The translations under genes were made by a program, and so were the position numbers. Source: a virus (Duplodnaviria > Heunggongvirae > Uroviricota > Caudoviricetes). Taken from it: 18,357 bases of DNA. Positions 9,379-18,357 of the stretch are shown here, one piece after another. The notes under the pieces are model-generated. The model ran no database searches, was not told where the DNA came from, and saw nothing but the letters and a program-made list of their open reading frames with translations. The stretch spans positions 1 to 18,357 of IMG/VR virus record IMGVR_UViG_2563366979_000001. One strand, given 5' to 3'. Position 1 is the stretch's first letter; every line of letters starts with the position of its first letter.

Positions 9379-9515
9379 TGTTTGAGTTTTATATGGCAGA
9401 ACTTCTTCGCCACCGCTGGAGGCGTCTGCGATTATATCGTTTCCCCGGTTCTGTTTTGACCGATTACCGAATACTGAAGAATTACGCCAAAACCCTGACA
9501 GGAGCAGGAGTATGA
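9378..9515 (+). CDS. ylcG: YlcG small protein (45 aa), not in ORF track
   Basis: Manually translated: [48 protein letters not shown] overlaps the rusA stop (TGATG); same position as ylcG in K-12 DLP12. Confidence 0.65.
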   Translation: MFEFYMAELLRHRWRRLRLYRFPGSVLTDYRILKNYAKTLTGAGV

Positions 9516-9600
9516 AGTCAGAGATAACAATCAACTAATACTGTTTTGTTGATTTTTGCTTGTAATTGGCGTTCTGGTCTGATTTTTGTGGAGTAAGTTG

Positions 9601-9978
9601 ATGCGTGATATTCAGATGGTTCTTGAGCGTTGGGGAGCGTGGGCGGCTAATAATCATGAAGATGTGACCTGGTCGTCCATTGCCGCCGGTTTTAAGGGAT
9701 TAATTCCTTCAAAAGTAAAATCTCGCCCACAATGTTGTGACGATGACGCGATGATCATTTGCGGGTGCATGGCCCGTCTGAAAAAGAACAACAGCGATTT
9801 GCATGATTTATTGGTGGACTATTATGTCGGCGGCATGACTTTTATGGCGCTTGCACGTAAGCATGGGCGATCTGATTGTTGGGTTGGCAGGATGCTCCAG
9901 AAAGCTGAGGGCGTAGTGGAGGGTATGCTGATGGTGTTGGATCTCCGATTGGAGATGGATGCTGATTGTTCGAAATAA
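9601..9978 (+). CDS. quuD: Late-gene antiterminator Q (QuuD-like)
   Basis: ATG at 9601 with GGAG 7 nt upstream (ORF-track start at 9586 is a TTG); product [24 protein letters not shown]...[16 protein letters not shown] resembles DLP12 QuuD; position between ylcG and the lysis genes. Confidence 0.85.
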
Positions 9979-10076
9979 TTAAAGGAAAAGTTGCTGTCTG
10001 ATTGTCATTAGTCTAACATTTTAAATGTTGGAATCGCAACGTAGTTATTATCATATAACAGCTTGTTTCCTGATTT

Positions 10077-10105
10077 AGCCAGCCTCCCCAAAGGCTGGTT
10101 TTTTT
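10077..10105 (+). terminator. Intrinsic terminator downstream of Q (candidate tR')
   Basis: Stem CCAGCC (10079-10084) / GGCTGG (10093-10098), 8-nt loop, followed by seven T (10099-10105); oriented for plus-strand transcripts only. Confidence 0.6.
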
Positions 10106-10133
10106 CTAATAAGTATTATTTCGGGTAGGGATT

Positions 10134-10658
10134 TTATTGTTTAACCCATAATAATTCATTGACATTGAATCCCAACTTTTGAGCGGTTCGCGCATAGTCT
10201 GCTTTTACTTTATCTGGAATAGTTGGGGTCCTTGCCAGAATCCATAGGTATTCTCTGTTCGGACCACTGACAAGAGCATACTTATACTCATCATCCAGTT
10301 TGATTACATTATAGCCACCATAGAAGGGGCCAAAAAACGAAACCTTCAACGCTGCAGTTTTAGTATCTCCAGTAAAGTATGCTTTACCTTCGCTCTCGCT
10401 CCATTTATTTTTCGTTGGATCGTATCCACGGTTAAGTACACGAATCCCTCCGTCGTTCCGTTTTCCATAAGTAGCGCTGACCTGTTCCAGACCACGTTCG
10501 AACCGGTTCTCGAGGCGAGCTATTTCATACCATTTTCCGAGGTAGCGGTTGGCGTCAAAATTTGTAATCGGCTGCACACCTTTAGGTGGTGTCGGGGCCT
10601 TACATGCTATAAGAGTGAAAGAGAGTGCAATGCCAGTCAACACAGGCCATAACTTCAT
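10134..10658 (-). CDS. Bacterial lipocalin (Blc-like outer-membrane lipoprotein), divergent paralog
   Basis: 174-aa ORF; lipobox LIAC in signal peptide; lipocalin signature GKWYEIAR plus conserved SEGKAYFTG...LKVSFFGPFYGGYNVI...YLWILARTP blocks that match E. coli Blc as recalled. Confidence 0.85.
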   Translation of the reverse strand: MKLWPVLTGIALSFTLIACKAPTPPKGVQPITNFDANRYLGKWYEIARLENRFERGLEQVSATYGKRNDGGIRVLNRGYDPTKNKWSESEGKAYFTGDTKTAALKVSFFGPFYGGYNVIKLDDEYKYALVSGPNREYLWILARTPTIPDKVKADYARTAQKLGFNVNELLWVKQ

Positions 10659-10690
10659 AATAAATCCTGTACTTTTGATAGTTGAGAGTA

Positions 10691-10740
10691 AGTATGAAAG
10701 ATAGATGATTACGACCGATCACTTAAAGAACTTTCATACT
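10691..10740. promoter_or_regulatory. Perfect 10-bp inverted repeat AGTATGAAAG / CTTTCATACT separated by 30 bp, in the divergent promoter region between the lipocalin and YbgA-like genes
   Basis: Read directly: 10691-10700 and 10731-10740 are exact reverse complements. Confidence 0.4.
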
Positions 10741-10850
10741 ATATTAGGAATAGTCCATAACAGAAAAATTGTCAGTGATGACGCCAGAAAGGCAATTTAT
10801 TCCGTGCACTACACAGTTTATGTGTTAATGAATTAGTCAAGGGGGAGAAT

Positions 10851-11810
10851 ATGATAAAAAAACCTGTGATTGGAATCAGCGGTTGTTTGGCCGGTTCTGC
10901 TGTTCGTTTTGATGGTGGTCACAAAAGAGCTGACTTTTTAATGGACAAATTAGTGGAATGGGTAACATTCAGACCAGTATGTCCGGAAATGGCTATAGGG
11001 CTGCCAGTTCCGCGTCCTGCTCTACGTCTTGTGCGCTCGACGCAAGGAAATATACGGATGTGTTTCAGCTACGACCAGAATGAGGATGTGACAGAGAGAA
11101 TGACAGAGTTTAGTCGTTCTTATATGGACAAATTAAAGGATGTATCGGGGTTTGTGGTTTGTGCTAAATCTCCCAGCTGTGGCATGGAGCGCGTGCGTGT
11201 CTATGATGAAAATGGTAATCGAGGTCGTAAAGATGGAGTGGGACTATTTACGAGCACTTTGATGGAAAAGTTTTCCTGGCTACCGGTTGAAGAGGATGGG
11301 CGATTACATGATCCAGTGCTTCGTGAGAATTTTGTTGAAAGAGTTTTTGCTTTGCATGAGCTCAATCACCTTTACAAGGAGAAATTATCAAGAAGAGAGT
11401 TATTAGCTTTTCATAGTCGTTATAAGCTTCAGTTGTTGGCGCATAGTCAGGCAGGCTATAAAGATATGGGACCATTTGTGGCTGCAATACACGAGTGGGC
11501 GGACCTTGAATCATACTTTGAGGTGTATCGTGATAAGCTGATGGCGATTCTCAGAAAACCTGCATCACGTAAAAATCACACGAATGTGCTGATGCATATA
11601 CAGGGGTATTTTAGTAACTACTTAAGTACACGCCAGCGTAAAGAGTTGAGAGAGGTTATACTTAACTATCGTTCTGGCACATTGCCTCTTCTTGCGCCGT
11701 TGACTCTGCTGAAGCATTATCTGGGTGAGTATCCTAATGATTACTTGCTTACACAGAATTACTTCGATCCCTATCCGGACGAACTGGCTCTAAGACTGAT
11801 GGTAAATTAA
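10851..11810 (+). CDS. DUF523-DUF1722 protein, YbgA/RudS-family putative [4Fe-4S] thiouridine desulfidase
   Basis: 319-aa ORF with strong SD GGGGGAG; N-terminal block GISGCLAGSAVRFDGGHK...RPVCPEMAIGLPVPRPALRL...VVCAKSPSCGMERVRV with Cys12/Cys44/Cys104 spaced like the cluster ligands of TudS-type desulfidases; C-terminal half resembles the DUF1722 part of E. coli YbgA. Confidence 0.8.
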   Translation: MIKKPVIGISGCLAGSAVRFDGGHKRADFLMDKLVEWVTFRPVCPEMAIGLPVPRPALRLVRSTQGNIRMCFSYDQNEDVTERMTEFSRSYMDKLKDVSGFVVCAKSPSCGMERVRVYDENGNRGRKDGVGLFTSTLMEKFSWLPVEEDGRLHDPVLRENFVERVFALHELNHLYKEKLSRRELLAFHSRYKLQLLAHSQAGYKDMGPFVAAIHEWADLESYFEVYRDKLMAILRKPASRKNHTNVLMHIQGYFSNYLSTRQRKELREVILNYRSGTLPLLAPLTLLKHYLGEYPNDYLLTQNYFDPYPDELALRLMVN

Positions 11811-12161
11811 TTGTATGCGATATCATCCAAAAGGATGAGTTCCTGCATGCAGGATATTTACAATCGTAAAAACTACACTATGATACCCAGAGTGTCAGTT
11901 TGTATAAAAACTCTGTTTACGCTGAAGAAACCATTGAGATGCAACTTAAAGTTGGTAAACATGTCAGTCAAAATATATAATATTATGATTCCACGCAGCT
12001 ATATATAATATAACAGATTGGTTTAATAATTTGTCTTTGTGAGTTAAATACATAATTTTATACTTGTGATGCAATGAGATTTTCCTTATTGTTGAACTGG
12101 CGAATATTGATTTTCCACCTATACTTACCTGGTGTAACCCCAATGATATCAGGTGGATAAT

Positions 12162-12893
12162 ATGCCATACATATGTTCTATCATTTTGGTGTTGAACTCG
12201 TTTGATGTCCGAATTGGTAAAGAAGATATTTTGTTTAAAAAAGGAAGTGCTGTTCTCATTGATTACAATTTAAAAGATTTTTTTTCACCAAATATAGATC
12301 ATGTAATGATCGTAGATGTTGAAGAGAAAACAGTTAATGATTTCTTTAAAAGCAACACACTCTCACCTTTTTCTGTAAGAAGGTTTTATCCGGCATACTT
12401 GATGGTGGAATGTGAAGATTTTTCATTGTTAAAGAACTTGATTGCATGCTTGAATTGTGATGGCAGAACTGTGGATGTTGTTAGAAATCAAATATCACTT
12501 GCATGTCTTGCTATCTTATCTTCAGAGAAAATAGTGCAAAGTTTTTTATTTGGATGTCTTAATAGTTTAGGAAGTAAAGTTAAGGCTATTATTCACACGG
12601 ATATATCTGCAGCATGGAGACTTTGTGATATATCTTCAAGGCTGTATCTGAGTGAAAGTCTGTTAAAAAGAAAATTAAAGCACGAAGGCTTATCATTTAG
12701 TAAATTAATTCTTGAAGAGCGAATGGTGATGGCGGAAAGGTTATTAAGCTACAATTTATATTCTGTTGGAAAAGTTGCTGAGATATGCGGTTATGAAAAC
12801 ACGTCATATTTTGTAAGTGTTTTCAGAAGATATTTTGGTGTTCCTCCCCATCAATATTCATCAAGATTTTTTTTAGAAAAAGAAATGATGTAA
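12162..12893 (+). CDS. AraC/XylS-family transcriptional regulator, AppY-like paralog
   Basis: C-terminal AraC-type HTH (LKRKLKHEGLSFSKLILEERMVMAERLL...VAEICGYENTSYFVSVFRRYFGVPP); N-terminus alignable with AppY (YICS.., FKK); ATG 12162 preceded by AGGTGG (ORF-track start 12153 is a GTG inside the SD). Confidence 0.8.
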   Translation: MPYICSIILVLNSFDVRIGKEDILFKKGSAVLIDYNLKDFFSPNIDHVMIVDVEEKTVNDFFKSNTLSPFSVRRFYPAYLMVECEDFSLLKNLIACLNCDGRTVDVVRNQISLACLAILSSEKIVQSFLFGCLNSLGSKVKAIIHTDISAAWRLCDISSRLYLSESLLKRKLKHEGLSFSKLILEERMVMAERLLSYNLYSVGKVAEICGYENTSYFVSVFRRYFGVPPHQYSSRFFLEKEMM

Positions 12894-12954
12894 CGTGATG
12901 CGTTTTAATGATTTTGTGATTTTCGTATTTGATAATTGTATGATGCTTTCAGCT

Positions 12955-12986
12955 ACGCCAGAATAATCGCTGGCGTTTTTCTTTTT
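12955..12986 (+). terminator. Intrinsic terminator between the AraC gene and the holin
   Basis: Stem ACGCCAG (12955-12961) / CTGGCGT (12970-12976), 8-nt loop, followed by TTTTTCTTTTT (to 12986). Confidence 0.65.
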
Positions 12987-13082
12987 GAATAGATGTTCAA
13001 GCCTTACGCTAATGTAACTTCTATACCTTTCCCTCTTCGTTCCGAACCGTGTACACCATCCGTTATTTGCGGAGGTGAGACT

Positions 13083-13298
13083 ATGAAATCCATGGACAAG
13101 TTAACAACGGGCATTGCCTACGGCACCTCCGCAGGCAGTGCTGGCTACTGGTTTTTACAGTGGCTTGATCAGGTCAGTCCATCACAGTGGGCTGCTATTG
13201 GTGTGCTGGGAAGTCTGGTTCTGGGCTTCCTGACTTATCTGACAAATCTGTACTTCAAAATCAGAGAAGACAAGCGTAAGGCTGCGAGAGGTGAATAA
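13083..13298 (+). CDS. essD: Class II pinholin, phage 21 S-type (S21 71/68) with dual-start motif
   Basis: 71-aa product [71 protein letters not shown] is near-identical to phage 21 S / K-12 EssD as recalled; Met1-Lys-Ser-Met4 dual start; SD GGAGGTGA; the ORF-track upstream start at 12993 is rejected. Confidence 0.9.
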
Positions 13299-13504
13299 TG
13301 TCGCCATCATTACGCAAGGCTGTTGCAGCTGCTATTGGTGGTGGGGCTGTTGCCATAGCGTCTGTGCTTATCACTGGTCCGAGTGGTGACGATGGTCTGG
13401 AAGGTGTCAGCTACATACCATATAAAGATATCGTTGGCGTATGGACTGTATGTTACGGGCACACCGGAAAAGACATTATGCTCGGTAAAACGTATGCTGG
13501 TTGA
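13298..13504 (+). pseudogene. rrrD: SAR endolysin (R21/RrrD-type lysozyme) truncated after about codon 66 by a deletion
   Basis: 68-aa [69 protein letters not shown] then AG-stop; matches the SAR domain and E35/D44/T50 region of RrrD/R21 but lacks the remaining roughly 100 residues; start overlaps the essD stop (TAATG). Confidence 0.8.
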
Positions 13505-15665
13505 AGGTTTTCCGCCTTCACATGCCGGGACCATTACCGTCTATGAAGGCTCCAGACCAGGTACGCTGAATGATTTTCTCGGTGCCATGACGGAAGATGA
13601 TGTCATGCCGGAGGCATTGCGTCGTTTTGAGGAAATGGTGGAAGAAGCGGCACGCAACGCTGAAGCCGCCTCTCAGAGCGCAGCGGCGGCAAAGAAATCC
13701 GAAACTGCAGCGGCATCATCGAAGAATGCGGCGAAAACCTCAGAAACGAATGCAGCTAACAGCGCACAGGCGGCAGCGGCCTCGCAGACTGCATCGGCAA
13801 ATTCCGCGACAGCAGCTAAAAAATCAGAAACCAACGCGAAAAATAGCGAGACAGCAGCAAAGACGAGCGAAACCAACGCAAAGTCCAGCCAGACGGCAGC
13901 GAAAACCAGCGAAACGAATGCCAAAGCCAGTGAAACTGCGGCGAAAAACAGCCAGGTTGCAGCAGCTGAAAGCGAGAGCGCAGCAGCCGGTTCTGCGACT
14001 TCAGCAGCTGGATCAGCAACTGCTGCGGCTAACAGCCAGAAAGCTGCGAAGACGAGTGAAACTAACGCAAAGTCCAGCCAGACGGCAGCGAAGACCAGCG
14101 AAACGAATGCCAAAGCCAGCGAAACTGCGGCAAAAAACAGTCAGGATGCAGCGGCCCAAAGCGAGAGTGCCGCAGCTGGTTCTGCAAGTGCGGCAGCTAA
14201 TAGCCAAAAAGCTGCAAAAACCAGTGAAACTAACGCAAAGACGAGTGAAACAAAAGCAGCAGCCAGCGAGACAGAAGCAACGTCAGCCGCAACAAGAGCA
14301 GAGAATGCAGCCCGGATTGCAGAAGATGTCGCTGATCCTGCTTCAGTCCCTCCGCTTCCTGATATCTGGCTACCCTTGAATGATTCTCTGGAAGCGATAA
14401 CAGGGTATGCGCCGGGGTATAAAACAATAACCATCGGTAGTGATGAAATCACTGTGCCAGTTAATGGAATATGTCAGTTTAGCCGGGCTTCATCAGCAAC
14501 GTATATTGATAAGTCCGGGCATATTACCGTGGCAGGTAATAACGTTCCTCGTTTTGAAAAATATGGTTTACTGATAGAGAATCAGCGAACAAACATGTTC
14601 GTAAATAGTTTTAATCCTGATGCCTGGAATAAAAGCGGTGGTATATCTGTAACATCATCAACAGATGAATTTGAGTTTAAATATGGACGTTTCACAGTAG
14701 GAAGCGACATAGCAGGAACGACAACAGGGAGAAATATATGCACAGTTGCTGGTAATAAAGGCATAGATGTGACTGGCGATGATCAGTACAGTAAAGGTCC
14801 GTATGTTACCGCGTCGTTCAGGGTAAGAAGTGATCTCAATGTTCGCGCACGTATCCGTTTTGAACGGTATAACTCGGAAGGATACACTTTTCTTTGTGAC
14901 GCCTATTTGTCATTACAGACCCGTGAACTACAAATTACTGGTGGCAATGCCCAGCTATTAACAGCAAACTTTGAAATCGACCCTGGAAGTGGATGGATAT
15001 ATTTTCAGGCAACACTGAAATGTCTGCCAGAATGGGGAATGGTTGGTACGCAGCTGCAAATTGCAGCCGACAGAGCTGTGGGGTCTTTTGCAACAGGTGA
15101 CTGGATAGAAGTAACCACCCCGCAATTCGAGTATGGTGCCTGTGCAACTTCCTTCATCATAACTACAACAGAGCCAGCGACTCGTGCATCAGATTTATGT
15201 AAATTTCCGCTGATGAAAAATATGTATACCATGCCTTTTACGTTCATGGTGGAAGTCCATAAAAACTGGTTTATTTCTCATAATGCTGCACCGCGCGTAA
15301 TTGATACAGAAAACCATCAGTCAGGTGCTCCATTTATCATGGGATTTGGCTCTTCTGGAACTATCAGTCAGGACGGTTATCCCTATTGTGATATAGGCGG
15401 GGCTAACCGGCGTGTATATGAGTCATGCGGAGTAAGAGATCTCGTTATGGGATTCAGGGTTAAGGCTGACGGCATGACATGCTCATTTGCAAATAAGCAT
15501 ATAAGCACAGAAACAAAAACAGTATGGAAATATATTCGTGAAGCTGCTGTGATTCGTATCGGGGGGCAAACGACGACAGGATTGCGACACCTTAATGGTC
15601 ATATAAAAAATCTCCGTTTCTGGAACAGAGCATTGTCAGATACGCAGCTTAAGGAATACGTATAA
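13494..15665 (+). CDS. Side tail fibre protein (lambda Stf-like), N-terminally truncated, with a LamG/concanavalin-like C-terminal domain; possibly a non-expressed remnant
   Basis: From about 13497 the frame reads [34 protein letters not shown]..., matching lambda Stf from about residue 38; Ala/Ser/Thr-rich SETNAK repeats; C-terminus ends [17 protein letters not shown] (LamG-like motif); upstream part of the 760-aa ORF is the rrrD region in another frame; first in-frame ATG at 13494 has no SD. Confidence 0.7.
13867..14223 (+). repeat. Two imperfect tandem repeats of about 170-190 bp inside stf, encoding the Ala-rich shaft
   Basis: Unit ...[42 protein letters not shown]...AANSQKAAK occurs twice (nt about 13867-14055 and 14056-14223), one copy with a 21-nt indel. 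Confidence 0.6.
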
Positions 15666-15934
15666 TGCGGGATATAACATTACGATTCGATAACAGAGAA
15701 CAGTTTAACGCAATTGTATATGACAGTGGCCTGTTCAGTCTTGAAGAAGAAAATGGGGTTCTTGTTGATGTTATTGGCTGCATTATCGATTACGAGGAGC
15801 CAGAAAACGAAGGATGTACAGGCATTGAGCGCGGTGGTTTTTTCGTAAACATGAGGATTGTTGATGGCAGTAAAAACATATCTTCTTTAATGCCTTTCAT
15901 TACGACAGATCAGCATGTAAGGACATGGGCTTAA
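15665..15934 (+). CDS. Hypothetical protein (89 aa), translationally coupled to stf; possibly a tail-fibre accessory protein
   Basis: ATG overlaps the stf stop (TAATG); no recognisable motif. Confidence 0.45.
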   Translation: MRDITLRFDNREQFNAIVYDSGLFSLEEENGVLVDVIGCIIDYEEPENEGCTGIERGGFFVNMRIVDGSKNISSLMPFITTDQHVRTWA

Positions 15935-15946
15935 TGGAGTAAGACA

Positions 15947-16630
15947 ATGGTTACAAAAACAGTAATTCCGGGAGACATCACCACGCTAAAGGGAGATATT
16001 TCCTCAATTAACGGAAAAGTATCAACGCTTCAGACTGAGATGACCAGTGCAAAGCAGGATATCAGCTCCAGATACACAAAAACTGAAGTTGATAATAAGC
16101 TGAAAAACAAAGTGGAAGTGAACGATCTGGAAAGTGGTCGTTATGGCGGAGATTTTTACCCGCTGACTGGCCGTGAAGCGTTTTATTTATGGGGATTGGG
16201 CACAACTACAGCGGCGGCAAATCTTTATCTTAATCCTGACCCTGCAATTTCGTCTGTGCTGCGGTCAACATCGTCTATCCGCTATAAACATTCAGTAGAG
16301 ACGATAGATTCAGAGCACGCCGATCTCATTTTCAGGATGCGCCCTGTGTGGTACAGGTCGCAATGCGAAAATGACAGGCGTGACTGGGGATTCTATGGAT
16401 TGATTGCCGAGGAAGTAGGAGAAATTGCCCCTCAGTTTGTTCACTGGCGACCAGCCAACGAAGATGATGCACCGGAAACCATTTCCAGCAATGGCCTTGT
16501 TGCCGAAGGTGTAATGTACGAACGTCTGGTTGTTCCACTGATTCACCATATCCAGAAACTGACTGAAAGAGTTGATGAACTTGAGTCAGAATTGAAGTTG
16601 TTATCAACTTCCCAAAGCGATATCGGATAA
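15947..16630 (+). CDS. Small tail-fibre/tailspike-like protein with C-terminal peptidase-S74 intramolecular chaperone domain
   Basis: 227-aa ORF, GGAG 7 nt upstream; C-terminal SSIRYKHSVETIDSEHADLIFRMRPVWYR...GFYGLIAEEVGEIAPQFV...GVMYERLVVPLIHHIQKLTERVDELESELKLL fits the S74 chaperone-domain pattern (S-x-R-x-K ... GLIAQEV ... Y..L.PLLIEA.KEL); N-terminal about 110 aa looks coiled-coil-like. Confidence 0.7.
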   Translation: MVTKTVIPGDITTLKGDISSINGKVSTLQTEMTSAKQDISSRYTKTEVDNKLKNKVEVNDLESGRYGGDFYPLTGREAFYLWGLGTTTAAANLYLNPDPAISSVLRSTSSIRYKHSVETIDSEHADLIFRMRPVWYRSQCENDRRDWGFYGLIAEEVGEIAPQFVHWRPANEDDAPETISSNGLVAEGVMYERLVVPLIHHIQKLTERVDELESELKLLSTSQSDIG

Positions 16631-16640
16631 AGGAGGAGTA

Positions 16641-16934
16641 ATGGATATAACACCTTTTCTTCATGCGCTTTGTGCTGTGGCTGCGCAGGTACTGATTGGC
16701 CTTTTTACCGGAAACTGGGCTTACGGGGCGATAGCCGGTTGTACGTTCTTCATTGCGCGTGAACACACCCAGGCAGAATATCGCTGGATTGAAATGTTCG
16801 GGCATGGCAAGCGAATGAATATGCCGTGGTGGGGCGGTTTTGATCCGCGCGCATGGGATGTGGCAAGCCTGATGGATTTTGCTGTGCCGGTGGTGGCGTG
16901 TCTGCTGGTCTGGCTGTTGGTTAATCGTGGGTGA
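16641..16934 (+). CDS. Small integral membrane protein (97 aa, about 3 predicted TM segments), function unknown
   Basis: Strong SD AGGAGG 6 nt before ATG; hydrophobic stretches at residues about 6-22, 26-39 and 77-94. Confidence 0.55.
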   Translation: MDITPFLHALCAVAAQVLIGLFTGNWAYGAIAGCTFFIAREHTQAEYRWIEMFGHGKRMNMPWWGGFDPRAWDVASLMDFAVPVVACLLVWLLVNRG

Positions 16935-16944
16935 AAAAAGGTGA

Positions 16945-17064
16945 GCTGTATATGCAACGGAGGAAGAAAACTCGTTGCTGGAAGCCTGGAAGAAGTATCG
17001 GGTGTTGCTGAACCGTGTGGACACTTCCGTAGCACCAGATATCGAGTGGCTTATTCAACCATAA
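16945..17064 (+). pseudogene. tfaX: 3' fragment of a tail-fibre assembly (Tfa) gene
   Basis: Open frame [40 protein letters not shown] matches the conserved C-terminus of lambdoid Tfa proteins ([30 protein letters not shown] as recalled for TfaE); no start codon or N-terminal region present. Confidence 0.55.
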
Positions 17065-17607
17065 TAAACAGTATGTATATCATAGGTTATTAATTGTGAG
17101 TTTTTTCGGTGTGTTATTTGTTTGTTTGATGTTATGCTTTTGCGCCCCAAAAGGTTGTTTAGATGTATTTTATCAATTGATTTTCAATATCGTTTAATAA
17201 AGAAAAATTAAGCAAGTTGGATGTTGATTTTTTGTTAATTGAATGGTTCTAATAATGTTTTTTTACTGTTGTTGAATGTGACTTGATAAGAAATGCAAGT
17301 AAAAATGATGCTCTTTTTATTTTAAATTCAAACGGTTGATATATATAGCAAGAGGTTTCAGGTGCGTTGTAGTGAGTTTATGTTAATAAAAAGCATAGTA
17401 AGCGTTGAAAAATGTAACTTTGAAATACGTTAGAATAAAAAACAATATACATATAATAATTTAATCTTAAATGAAATTTATTAAAATTTGCAAACTATAA
17501 TTTTGTGTATAAAAATATAAATGCACATCATCCTGATTATGATTGTGTATTTAATTGGTTGTTATTTGACTACTATCAACTTGCTTTAATTTTATGATAG
17601 GTGCAAG

Positions 17608-18357
17608 ATGGATTATGTTTGCTCCGTAGTTTTCATCTGTCAATCATTTGATTTAATTATAAACAGGAGAGTTATCTCGTTCAAAAAAAATTCATTGTTT
17701 ATTGTAAACGACAAAATTAGAAGGGAGTTACCAGTATGCCCCTCTAAACTAAGAATTGTTGATATAGATAAGAAAACATGTTTATCCTTTTTTATCGACG
17801 TGAATAATGATCTGCCTGGCAAATTTACTCTTGATAAGAATGGCTATATTGCTGAAGAGGAACCTCCATTATCGCTTGTTTTTTCTCTGTTTGAAGGGAT
17901 TAAAATAGCAGACTCACACTCCCTTTGGTTAAAAGAAAGACTATGTATATCCTTACTTGCCATGTTCAAAAAACGCGAAAGTGTAAATTCATTTATACTA
18001 ACAAATATAAATACATTTACCTGTAAAATTACTGGAATAATCAGTTTTAATATTGAGCGGCAATGGCATTTAAAAGATATTGCGGAATTGATTTATACGA
18101 GTGAAAGTTTAATAAAAAAAAGATTAAGAGATGAAGGAACGTCATTTACTGAAATATTGAGAGATACTAGGATGAGGTATGCAAAAAAACTCATAACTTC
18201 AAACTCTTATTCTATTAATGTCGTAGCCCAGAAATGTGGCTATAACAGTACTTCATATTTCATATGTGCATTTAAAGATTATTATGGTGTCACGCCATCT
18301 CATTATTTTGAGAAAATAATCGGCGTCACAGATGGAATAAACAAAACAATTGACTGA
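17608..18357 (+). CDS. appY: AraC-family regulator AppY; the TGA stop is the last three bases of the window
   Basis: 249-aa [36 protein letters not shown]... near-identical to K-12 AppY as recalled; preceded by about 540 bp of very AT-rich DNA. Confidence 0.9.

Follow-up and report, generated by a model that had tools for sequence, protein, structure and literature searches.

The distal end of a side tail fibre cassette is found in the right-hand part of an 18,357-nucleotide (nt) stretch of DNA (the window), positions 1 to 18,357 of the IMG/VR virus record IMGVR_UViG_2563366979_000001. The window is a DLP12-type lambdoid prophage remnant within an Escherichia chromosome, adjoining appY. Four genes of the cassette follow one another on the plus strand: 'stf (13494..15665), a proximal side tail fibre gene without its first 61 codons; a gene for an 89-amino-acid (aa) soluble alpha/beta protein (15665..15934); a gene for a 227-aa distal mini-fibre (15947..16630); and a gene for a 97-aa inner-membrane protein with three helices (16641..16934). 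The original prediction, which was made from the sequence alone, had singled out the 89-aa and 97-aa genes as uncharacterised neighbours of the fibre and had suggested that, for a small inner-membrane protein, a place beside receptor-binding genes is typical of superinfection-exclusion or receptor-masking factors. The open reading frames (ORFs) lie where it had placed them, and the profile searches now run agree that neither gene belongs to a recognized family, since the only matches are to PHROGs of unknown function. Both ORFs are real genes rather than chance ORFs, and many E. coli assemblies contain proteins of exactly these sequences, named 'hypothetical protein'. Literature text searches by accession numbers, PHROG identifiers or phage 21 matched no papers. 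Thus, while the observation is confirmed, its interpretation is partly supported, and the two genes are to be treated separately: in the light of a comparison of these catalogued but uncharacterised families, the 89-aa protein is probably an accessory of the fibre and the 97-aa protein probably an accessory membrane protein acting on the host.

The 97-aa gene begins with an ATG preceded by AGGAGG at a spacing of 4 nt, in agreement with the strong Shine-Dalgarno sequence described earlier, and a gap of 10 nt separates it from the 227-aa gene. Its product matches phrog_1443 (unknown function) with an expectation value (E) of 3.7e-59, residues 1-96 aligning with positions 1-96 of the 97 in the profile. 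There is no significant match in Pfam, NCBIfam or PADLOC, where the two small proteins produced sub-threshold noise only (e.g., PhoR N-terminal, E=0.053; Herpeto_peptide, E=0.12); a profile search of PDB sequences gave no match, and fold searches returned generic helical matches only. The family itself is large: a word-indexed search gave 577 homologues, and an exhaustive profile search gave 445 clusters (50% identity) and no informative domain fusion, all members being stand-alone proteins of ~90-110 aa. Hydropathy and AlphaFold2 (mean predicted local distance difference test score, pLDDT, 95) both give three helices, at residues 4-23, 26-53, and 74-96, as had been predicted. Lysine and arginine residues are distributed very unevenly, with a mean count of 5.7 on the side that includes the N-terminus and the 40-73 loop versus 0.5 on the other side. 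Given this bias and the positive-inside rule, the conserved 34-residue loop is predicted to face the cytoplasm, leaving for the periplasm a turn of 3-5 residues and ~3 residues at the C-terminus, which reads ...LLVNRG.

Conservation within the family is unusually strong for a small phage protein, as Escherichia members are ~60% identical to those of Comamonas or Aeromonas. The conserved residues are H8, Q16, R40-E41-x-[TA]-Q-A-E-Y-R48, R58, P62, W72, D79, and P83, and of these H8, R40, E41, Q44, A45, E46, W72, and P83 are kept even in the most distant members; closer relatives have the motif AREHTQAEYRWI...GKR.NMPWWGGFD.R.W. A sample of 84 E. coli copies contains 79 intact ones, with a median ratio of nonsynonymous to synonymous substitution rates (dN/dS) of 0.11, and the gene is under purifying selection.

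The gene is also common, being present in 1900 of 5426 complete E. coli genomes (35%), BL21 included, with a median of two copies and as many as seven. In E. coli proviruses, it is nearly always the last gene of a cassette that consists of Stf, a ~90-aa gene, and a distal fibre. The virulent phages IrisVonRoten and tonn, which have a homologous cassette, leave no room for it, and HC6, a T1-like virulent Escherichia phage, has just after its 859-aa fibre gene a frameshifted fragment of the family (…ANIPWWGGFDWRAWDLPSLLD) at 2965-3120 that looks like the decaying passenger of a transferred fibre cassette. The same partial match occurs in four further phage records, and another virulent phage contains a 42-aa fragment. 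Elsewhere, intact homologues directly follow unrelated tail fibre, tailspike, or J genes in prophages of Leclercia, Pantoea, Comamonas, and Desulfovibrio, and the temperate P2-like phage phiHAP-1 has a homologue between its tail fibre assembly and sheath genes. The temperate phages that have the gene after their receptor-binding genes come from gamma-, beta-, and delta-proteobacteria. Some prophages have a holin or lysozyme gene following the homologue.

Other neighbourhoods are more unusual. At two beta-proteobacterial loci (Comamonas nitrativorans and Pigmentiphaga humi; 4785-8054), a member of the family stands between an unannotated gene of 370-383 aa and the bAvd and reverse-transcriptase genes of a diversity-generating retroelement; because such genes are contiguous in canonical cassettes of these retroelements, this placement is out of the ordinary. 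In phage 21, a whole sitABCD iron/manganese transporter operon, encoded on the opposite strand, comes after the 97-aa gene (6386-9835); there too the post-fibre region carries cargo.

The 97-aa protein is probably a host-acting accessory protein rather than a component of the virion or of its assembly, as the fibre machinery works without it. The gene would be one that aids the lysogen or the temperate phage, because temperate phages carry it intact, the virulent E. coli phages examined either lack it or keep only decayed traces, and it turns up repeatedly after unrelated receptor-binding genes. Furthermore, the receptor-binding proteins encoded next to it differ from one another, yet this protein hardly varies, so that its target would be a conserved component of the inner membrane or its cytoplasmic face, not a surface receptor. 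These considerations have led to the following model. Temperate phages would have taken the gene from a cellular family of small membrane proteins and kept it directly after their receptor-binding genes; the product, which would form no part of the fibre, would act on the host inner membrane to the benefit of the prophage, most likely by blocking the genome entry of superinfecting phages. This last step can be put forward only tentatively from the sequence comparisons. Its general form, that phrog_1443 is an unrecognised and widespread class of phage-borne inner-membrane proteins of cellular origin, in which the invariant cytoplasm-facing loop would block a conserved entry step and so give broad, receptor-independent superinfection exclusion, is rather doubtful. 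As a whole, the locus is best explained as the distal end of a composite side-fibre cassette plus one accessory gene, an account that we hold with about even confidence.

Several observations weigh against an exclusion role. A crude consensus scan of the plus strand from 15000 to 17700 found no sigma-70-like promoter, and no terminator was found that would separate the 97-aa gene from the late fibre operon, whereas exclusion requires expression in the lysogen. Nor does the protein match the known exclusion or defence families in PHROGs and PADLOC, and the database names of its homologues are all 'hypothetical protein', with none annotated with a function. Finally, stable copies outside phages suggest a general cellular role. 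Such lone chromosomal copies, which have no phage neighbours, occur in Aeromonas, Leclercia, and sphingomonads and have housekeeping surroundings: in four Aeromonas species the homologue occupies one and the same site, between pirin and RIO1 genes; the Leclercia copies adjoin a peptidase M3 gene; and the sphingomonad copies adjoin ligA, pnp, aroG-type, or other housekeeping genes. Together with the invariance of the charged residues between Escherichia and Comamonas members at the identity given above, they would fit a small membrane protein of general cellular use, for example in envelope or ion homeostasis, whose phage copies would be a lysogen fitness trait unrelated to exclusion. However, neighbour surveys revealed no conserved operon partner, so that neither a partner nor any synteny kept across taxa suggests a pathway, and such a role leaves the repeated placement right after the receptor-binding genes of unrelated temperate phages unexplained; we consider it rather unlikely.

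A protein of ~100 aa with three membrane helices also invites comparison with the class I holins (lambda S105 type), and in prophages of Comamonas thiooxydans, Acidovorax, and Pantoea the gene is directly upstream of a lysozyme or GH108 endolysin gene, which might suggest a holin, antiholin, or lysis regulator. Yet Comamonas terrae has a separate holin gene between the homologue and the lysozyme gene, and in the window (holin gene essD at 12993-13298) as in phage 21, a separate lysis cassette is present at another place. The protein lacks a charged C-terminal tail and matches no holin family in Pfam or PHROG, it is far more conserved than class I holins, and stable chromosomal copies are atypical of holins as well; a lysis function is thus improbable. 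Masking or modification of a surface receptor, which the original prediction had offered as an alternative to exclusion, is disfavoured and quite improbable. The proximity to receptor-binding genes is shared with Cor, Llp, and the epsilon15 conversion genes, which might suggest blocking of the Cor or Llp kind or modification of lipopolysaccharide (LPS), and two lipid A acyltransferase genes lie near the Aeromonas copy. However, by the predicted topology the conserved loop is cytoplasmic and the protein exposes almost nothing to the periplasm; a lipobox is lacking as well, the residues before C11 being H-A-L and C11 itself not being conserved. Moreover, a nearly invariant protein accompanies adjacent receptor-binding proteins that are unrelated to one another, and the family extends to sphingomonads, which lack LPS. 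An LPS-related role drawn from the Aeromonas neighbours in particular was dropped, since the acyltransferase genes are convergent with the homologue rather than co-oriented and the family occurs in these LPS-less bacteria. Least probable of all is a role of the 97-aa protein as a membrane-bound factor that the fibres encoded upstream need in order to assemble or mature. Although its place at the end of the cassette in E. coli proviruses, the 10-nt gap, and the lack of a detected separate promoter would all be in keeping with such a function, IrisVonRoten and tonn make homologous fibres without it, the gene is decayed in HC6, and elsewhere it follows unrelated fibres and tailspikes or exists outside prophages altogether.

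The 89-aa gene presents a different picture. Its ATG overlaps the TAA stop codon of 'stf (TAATG at 15663-15667), and the protein matches phrog_1361 (unknown function) over its full length (residues 1-89 against positions 1-92 of 92; E=7.5e-30), with no significant match in Pfam, NCBIfam, or PADLOC and none to a Tfa-type family in Pfam or NCBIfam. A profile built from five sequences recovers 261 homologues; an initial word-indexed search with the single sequence had given only 4 fragments. Four further loci have a homologue (30-36% identity) immediately downstream of a gene for a lateral or side fibre, namely those of the temperate phages 21 (CPT_21_23) and PhiR11_1, the T5-like virulent phage IrisVonRoten (bas32_0023), and the T1-like virulent phage tonn (gp59). 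In all five loci, which represent three phage families (lambdoid, T5-like, and T1-like), the small gene overlaps the stop codon of the fibre gene by 1 or 4 nt. The same order is seen in ~70 of 80 E. coli proviruses in IMG/VR, where Stf (~690-800 aa) is followed by a gene of 89-93 aa and then by an optional third gene, whose product has 227, 224, 234, 346, or 574 aa. Phage 21 has the small gene and no distal fibre, and for this reason the small protein belongs with the proximal fibre. The translational coupling to stf claimed in the original prediction is upheld by the overlap in the window and in the other loci, but in this remnant the coupling may not operate, because stf lacks its first 61 codons here and does not continue the reading frame of the upstream gene rrrD.

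Since the gene is coupled to one fibre type in virulent and temperate phages alike, its product is probably a fibre accessory rather than an exclusion factor; most likely, as judged from these comparisons, it is a chaperone or joint subunit and not a defence gene. The linkage to the proximal fibre is observed directly, and the molecular role we infer. In the proposed mechanism, the 89-aa protein would be a dedicated partner of the proximal fibre, made by translational coupling, and would either act as a chaperone for the distal region of that fibre or form a small joint subunit that docks the distal fibre via its N-terminal motif. Two points tell against this: a pure joint role is at odds with phage 21, which retains the small gene without a distal fibre, and the structural model of the protein is only moderately confident (pLDDT 68). 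The idea of accessory factors in this location has to be judged for each gene by itself. It fits the 97-aa gene, for which a survey of homologues shows a recurrent slot after unrelated receptor-binding genes in temperate phages, but not the 89-aa gene, which travels with one fibre type and whose IrisVonRoten homologue is even labelled 'tail fiber protein' in the BASEL annotation, a label without experimental support.

The product of 'stf, identified by its Pfam, NCBIfam, and PHROG matches (phage_tail_N, E=1.6e-29; GTA_spike_fiber, E=2.1e-12; phrog_1419, tail protein), contains Ala/Ser/Thr-rich repeats and a GTA_spike_fiber-type distal region. Residues 38-760 of the ORF are 97.8% identical to residues 62-784 of PhiR11_1 Stf, and the distal ~500 residues, the conserved region that carries the NCBIfam domain, are 40-47% identical to the fibres of phage 21, IrisVonRoten, and tonn. 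The IrisVonRoten fibre Gp22, the 47% match, has a galectin-like C-terminal domain (PMC11990801). Within the stf remnant, long near-perfect repeats rich in Ala, Ser, Thr, and Lys at ~13700-14300 give rise to spurious long ORFs in other frames and on the opposite strand. The 227-aa mini-fibre consists of an N-terminal motif, a coiled coil, and a C-terminal intramolecular chaperone domain (Peptidase_S74, PF13884; residues 109-165, E=7.5e-6, 26.6 bits against a gathering cut-off of 22). It matches the C-terminus of phrog_3299 (E=1e-132) and is 56% identical to tonn gp60; cleavage at the conventional S74 site, whose position is predicted from the sequence motif, would leave ~108 aa. The N-terminal motif M[VA]T.T.IP.DI..LK is common to the 224-, 234-, 346-, and 574-aa distal fibres, and the first ~16 residues are all that the distal fibres (224-574 aa) have in common. 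Those versions that were checked, of 227, 346, and 574 aa, end in the Peptidase_S74 chaperone or match that region.

The deletion mentioned in the original prediction is real as well. The left part of the window, which contains phage replication genes, an inverse autotransporter gene, ybcN-ninE-rusA, the Q antiterminator gene, three inserted genes, essD, and the start of rrrD, is 99.5% identical to some E. coli genomes, but the match stops at position 13495. The intact essD-rrrD arrangement of E. coli WP4-S18-ESBL-07 aligns at 99.5% identity only up to this point, and the ORF list together with this alignment identifies rrrD' (13298..13504, plus strand), next to essD, as the N-terminal fragment of 68 codons of a prophage lysozyme gene truncated by the deletion. 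At ~13495, homology to rrrD stops and homology to stf begins from codon 62, rrrD codon ~66 being fused to stf codon 62 out of frame. The sequence comparison indicates that a single deletion took out everything between the inside of rrrD and the inside of stf, with loss of Rz, terminase, the head and tail genes, J, and lom. The junction is absent from every complete E. coli genome in the collection. Downstream, 'stf (to 15665), the 89-aa, 227-aa, and 97-aa genes, a C-terminal tfa remnant, and appY (17608-18357) are left; in strain PS_131_S11, which has an intact prophage at the same locus, the order is J, lom, stf, 89-aa, 227-aa, 97-aa, tfa', and appY, and in related genomes the locus runs on into ompT, envY, and nfrAB. 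That the small genes survived the deletion, as the original prediction had pointed out, is true and yet carries no weight, for they simply lie outside its end-points. The tfa' remnant (16954-17064, plus strand), a tfaX-like pseudogene read from the sequence, is annotated at the same position in NZ_CP145099.1 as an incomplete tail fibre assembly protein, and it suggests that an older stf-tfa pair was replaced by the four-gene fibre cassette through recombination ending inside tfa.

Further features of the window concern the prophage more generally. Three genes that do not look phage-derived, which encode a lipocalin (minus strand), a YbgA family protein, and an AraC-like helix-turn-helix regulator, lie between the Q antiterminator gene and essD (~10134-12893) and form a second accessory-gene slot of the same prophage. 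In the early region, between replication gene P and ybcN (2672-6583), a gene for a 1303-aa inverse autotransporter of the intimin/invasin type precedes an oppositely oriented alpha/beta hydrolase gene. No complete E. coli genome matches the fibre region of the window at more than 97.3% identity, but the 97-aa protein has counterparts with 99-100% identity in Escherichia ruysiae and among IMG/VR proviruses; the host is perhaps not a typical E. coli.

Neither of the results on the small genes overturns current understanding. The 97-aa gene is, however, among the commonest unannotated genes of E. coli prophages, and if its product does exclude phages at the inner membrane, this would bear on the prediction of host range and on the design of phage therapy and would add a compact exclusion module that is easy to test. 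The ~90-aa protein, conserved but unstudied, belongs to a fibre cassette that passes among lambdoid, T5-like, and T1-like phages, and for the engineering of chimeric side fibres it is of importance whether the protein serves as a chaperone or as a joint subunit.

Known systems offer partial parallels to both proteins. The 89-aa gene resembles those of the Tfa-type chaperones (lambda Tfa, P2 G, and T4 gp38/gp57A) in that it directly follows the fibre gene, is coupled to it, and co-varies with the distal part of the fibre. In contrast to them, its product has no sequence match, is about half their size, and has another predicted fold, and the true tfa remnant of the window is separate from it. 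The cassette as a whole recalls the branched lateral fibres of T5-like phages (DT57C LtfA/LtfB and IrisVonRoten Gp22/Gp24), in which a tail-anchored proximal fibre bears a separately encoded distal fibre with an S74 chaperone (PMC4728585, PMC11990801). The distal receptor-binding fibre Gp24 of IrisVonRoten, which has been modelled as attached to the proximal fibre Gp22 (PMC11990801), begins with the same N-terminal motif as the 227-aa protein. In contrast, the distal fibre of the window is very short, and DT57C LtfA has a chaperone domain of its own, no small companion gene being described for it (PMC4728585). Neither report discusses the ~90-aa gene that separates the two fibre genes, nor the 92-aa Gp23 of IrisVonRoten (PMC4728585, PMC11990801).

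For the 97-aa protein, the predicted inner-membrane location, with its three hydrophobic helices, confident model, and lysine/arginine bias, is a likeness to T4 Imm, HK97 gp15, and P22 SieA. HK97 gp15 and P22 SieA are inner-membrane exclusion proteins. The position of the gene is likewise that of the morons found by receptor-binding genes (P2 fun(Z), HK97 gp15, P22 sieA, phi80/N15 cor, T5 llp, and the effector loci of lambdoid prophages of enterohaemorrhagic E. coli), as it too is a small non-structural gene directly after the tail fibre genes of a temperate phage. It differs from all of these in having no sequence similarity to any of them, in having no promoter or terminator of its own that was detected, and in having stable relatives in non-phage chromosomes. 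P2 offers a positional parallel: its conversion gene fun(Z) lies between the gene for tail fibre assembly and that for the sheath, the very slot in which phiHAP-1 carries its copy of the 97-aa gene.

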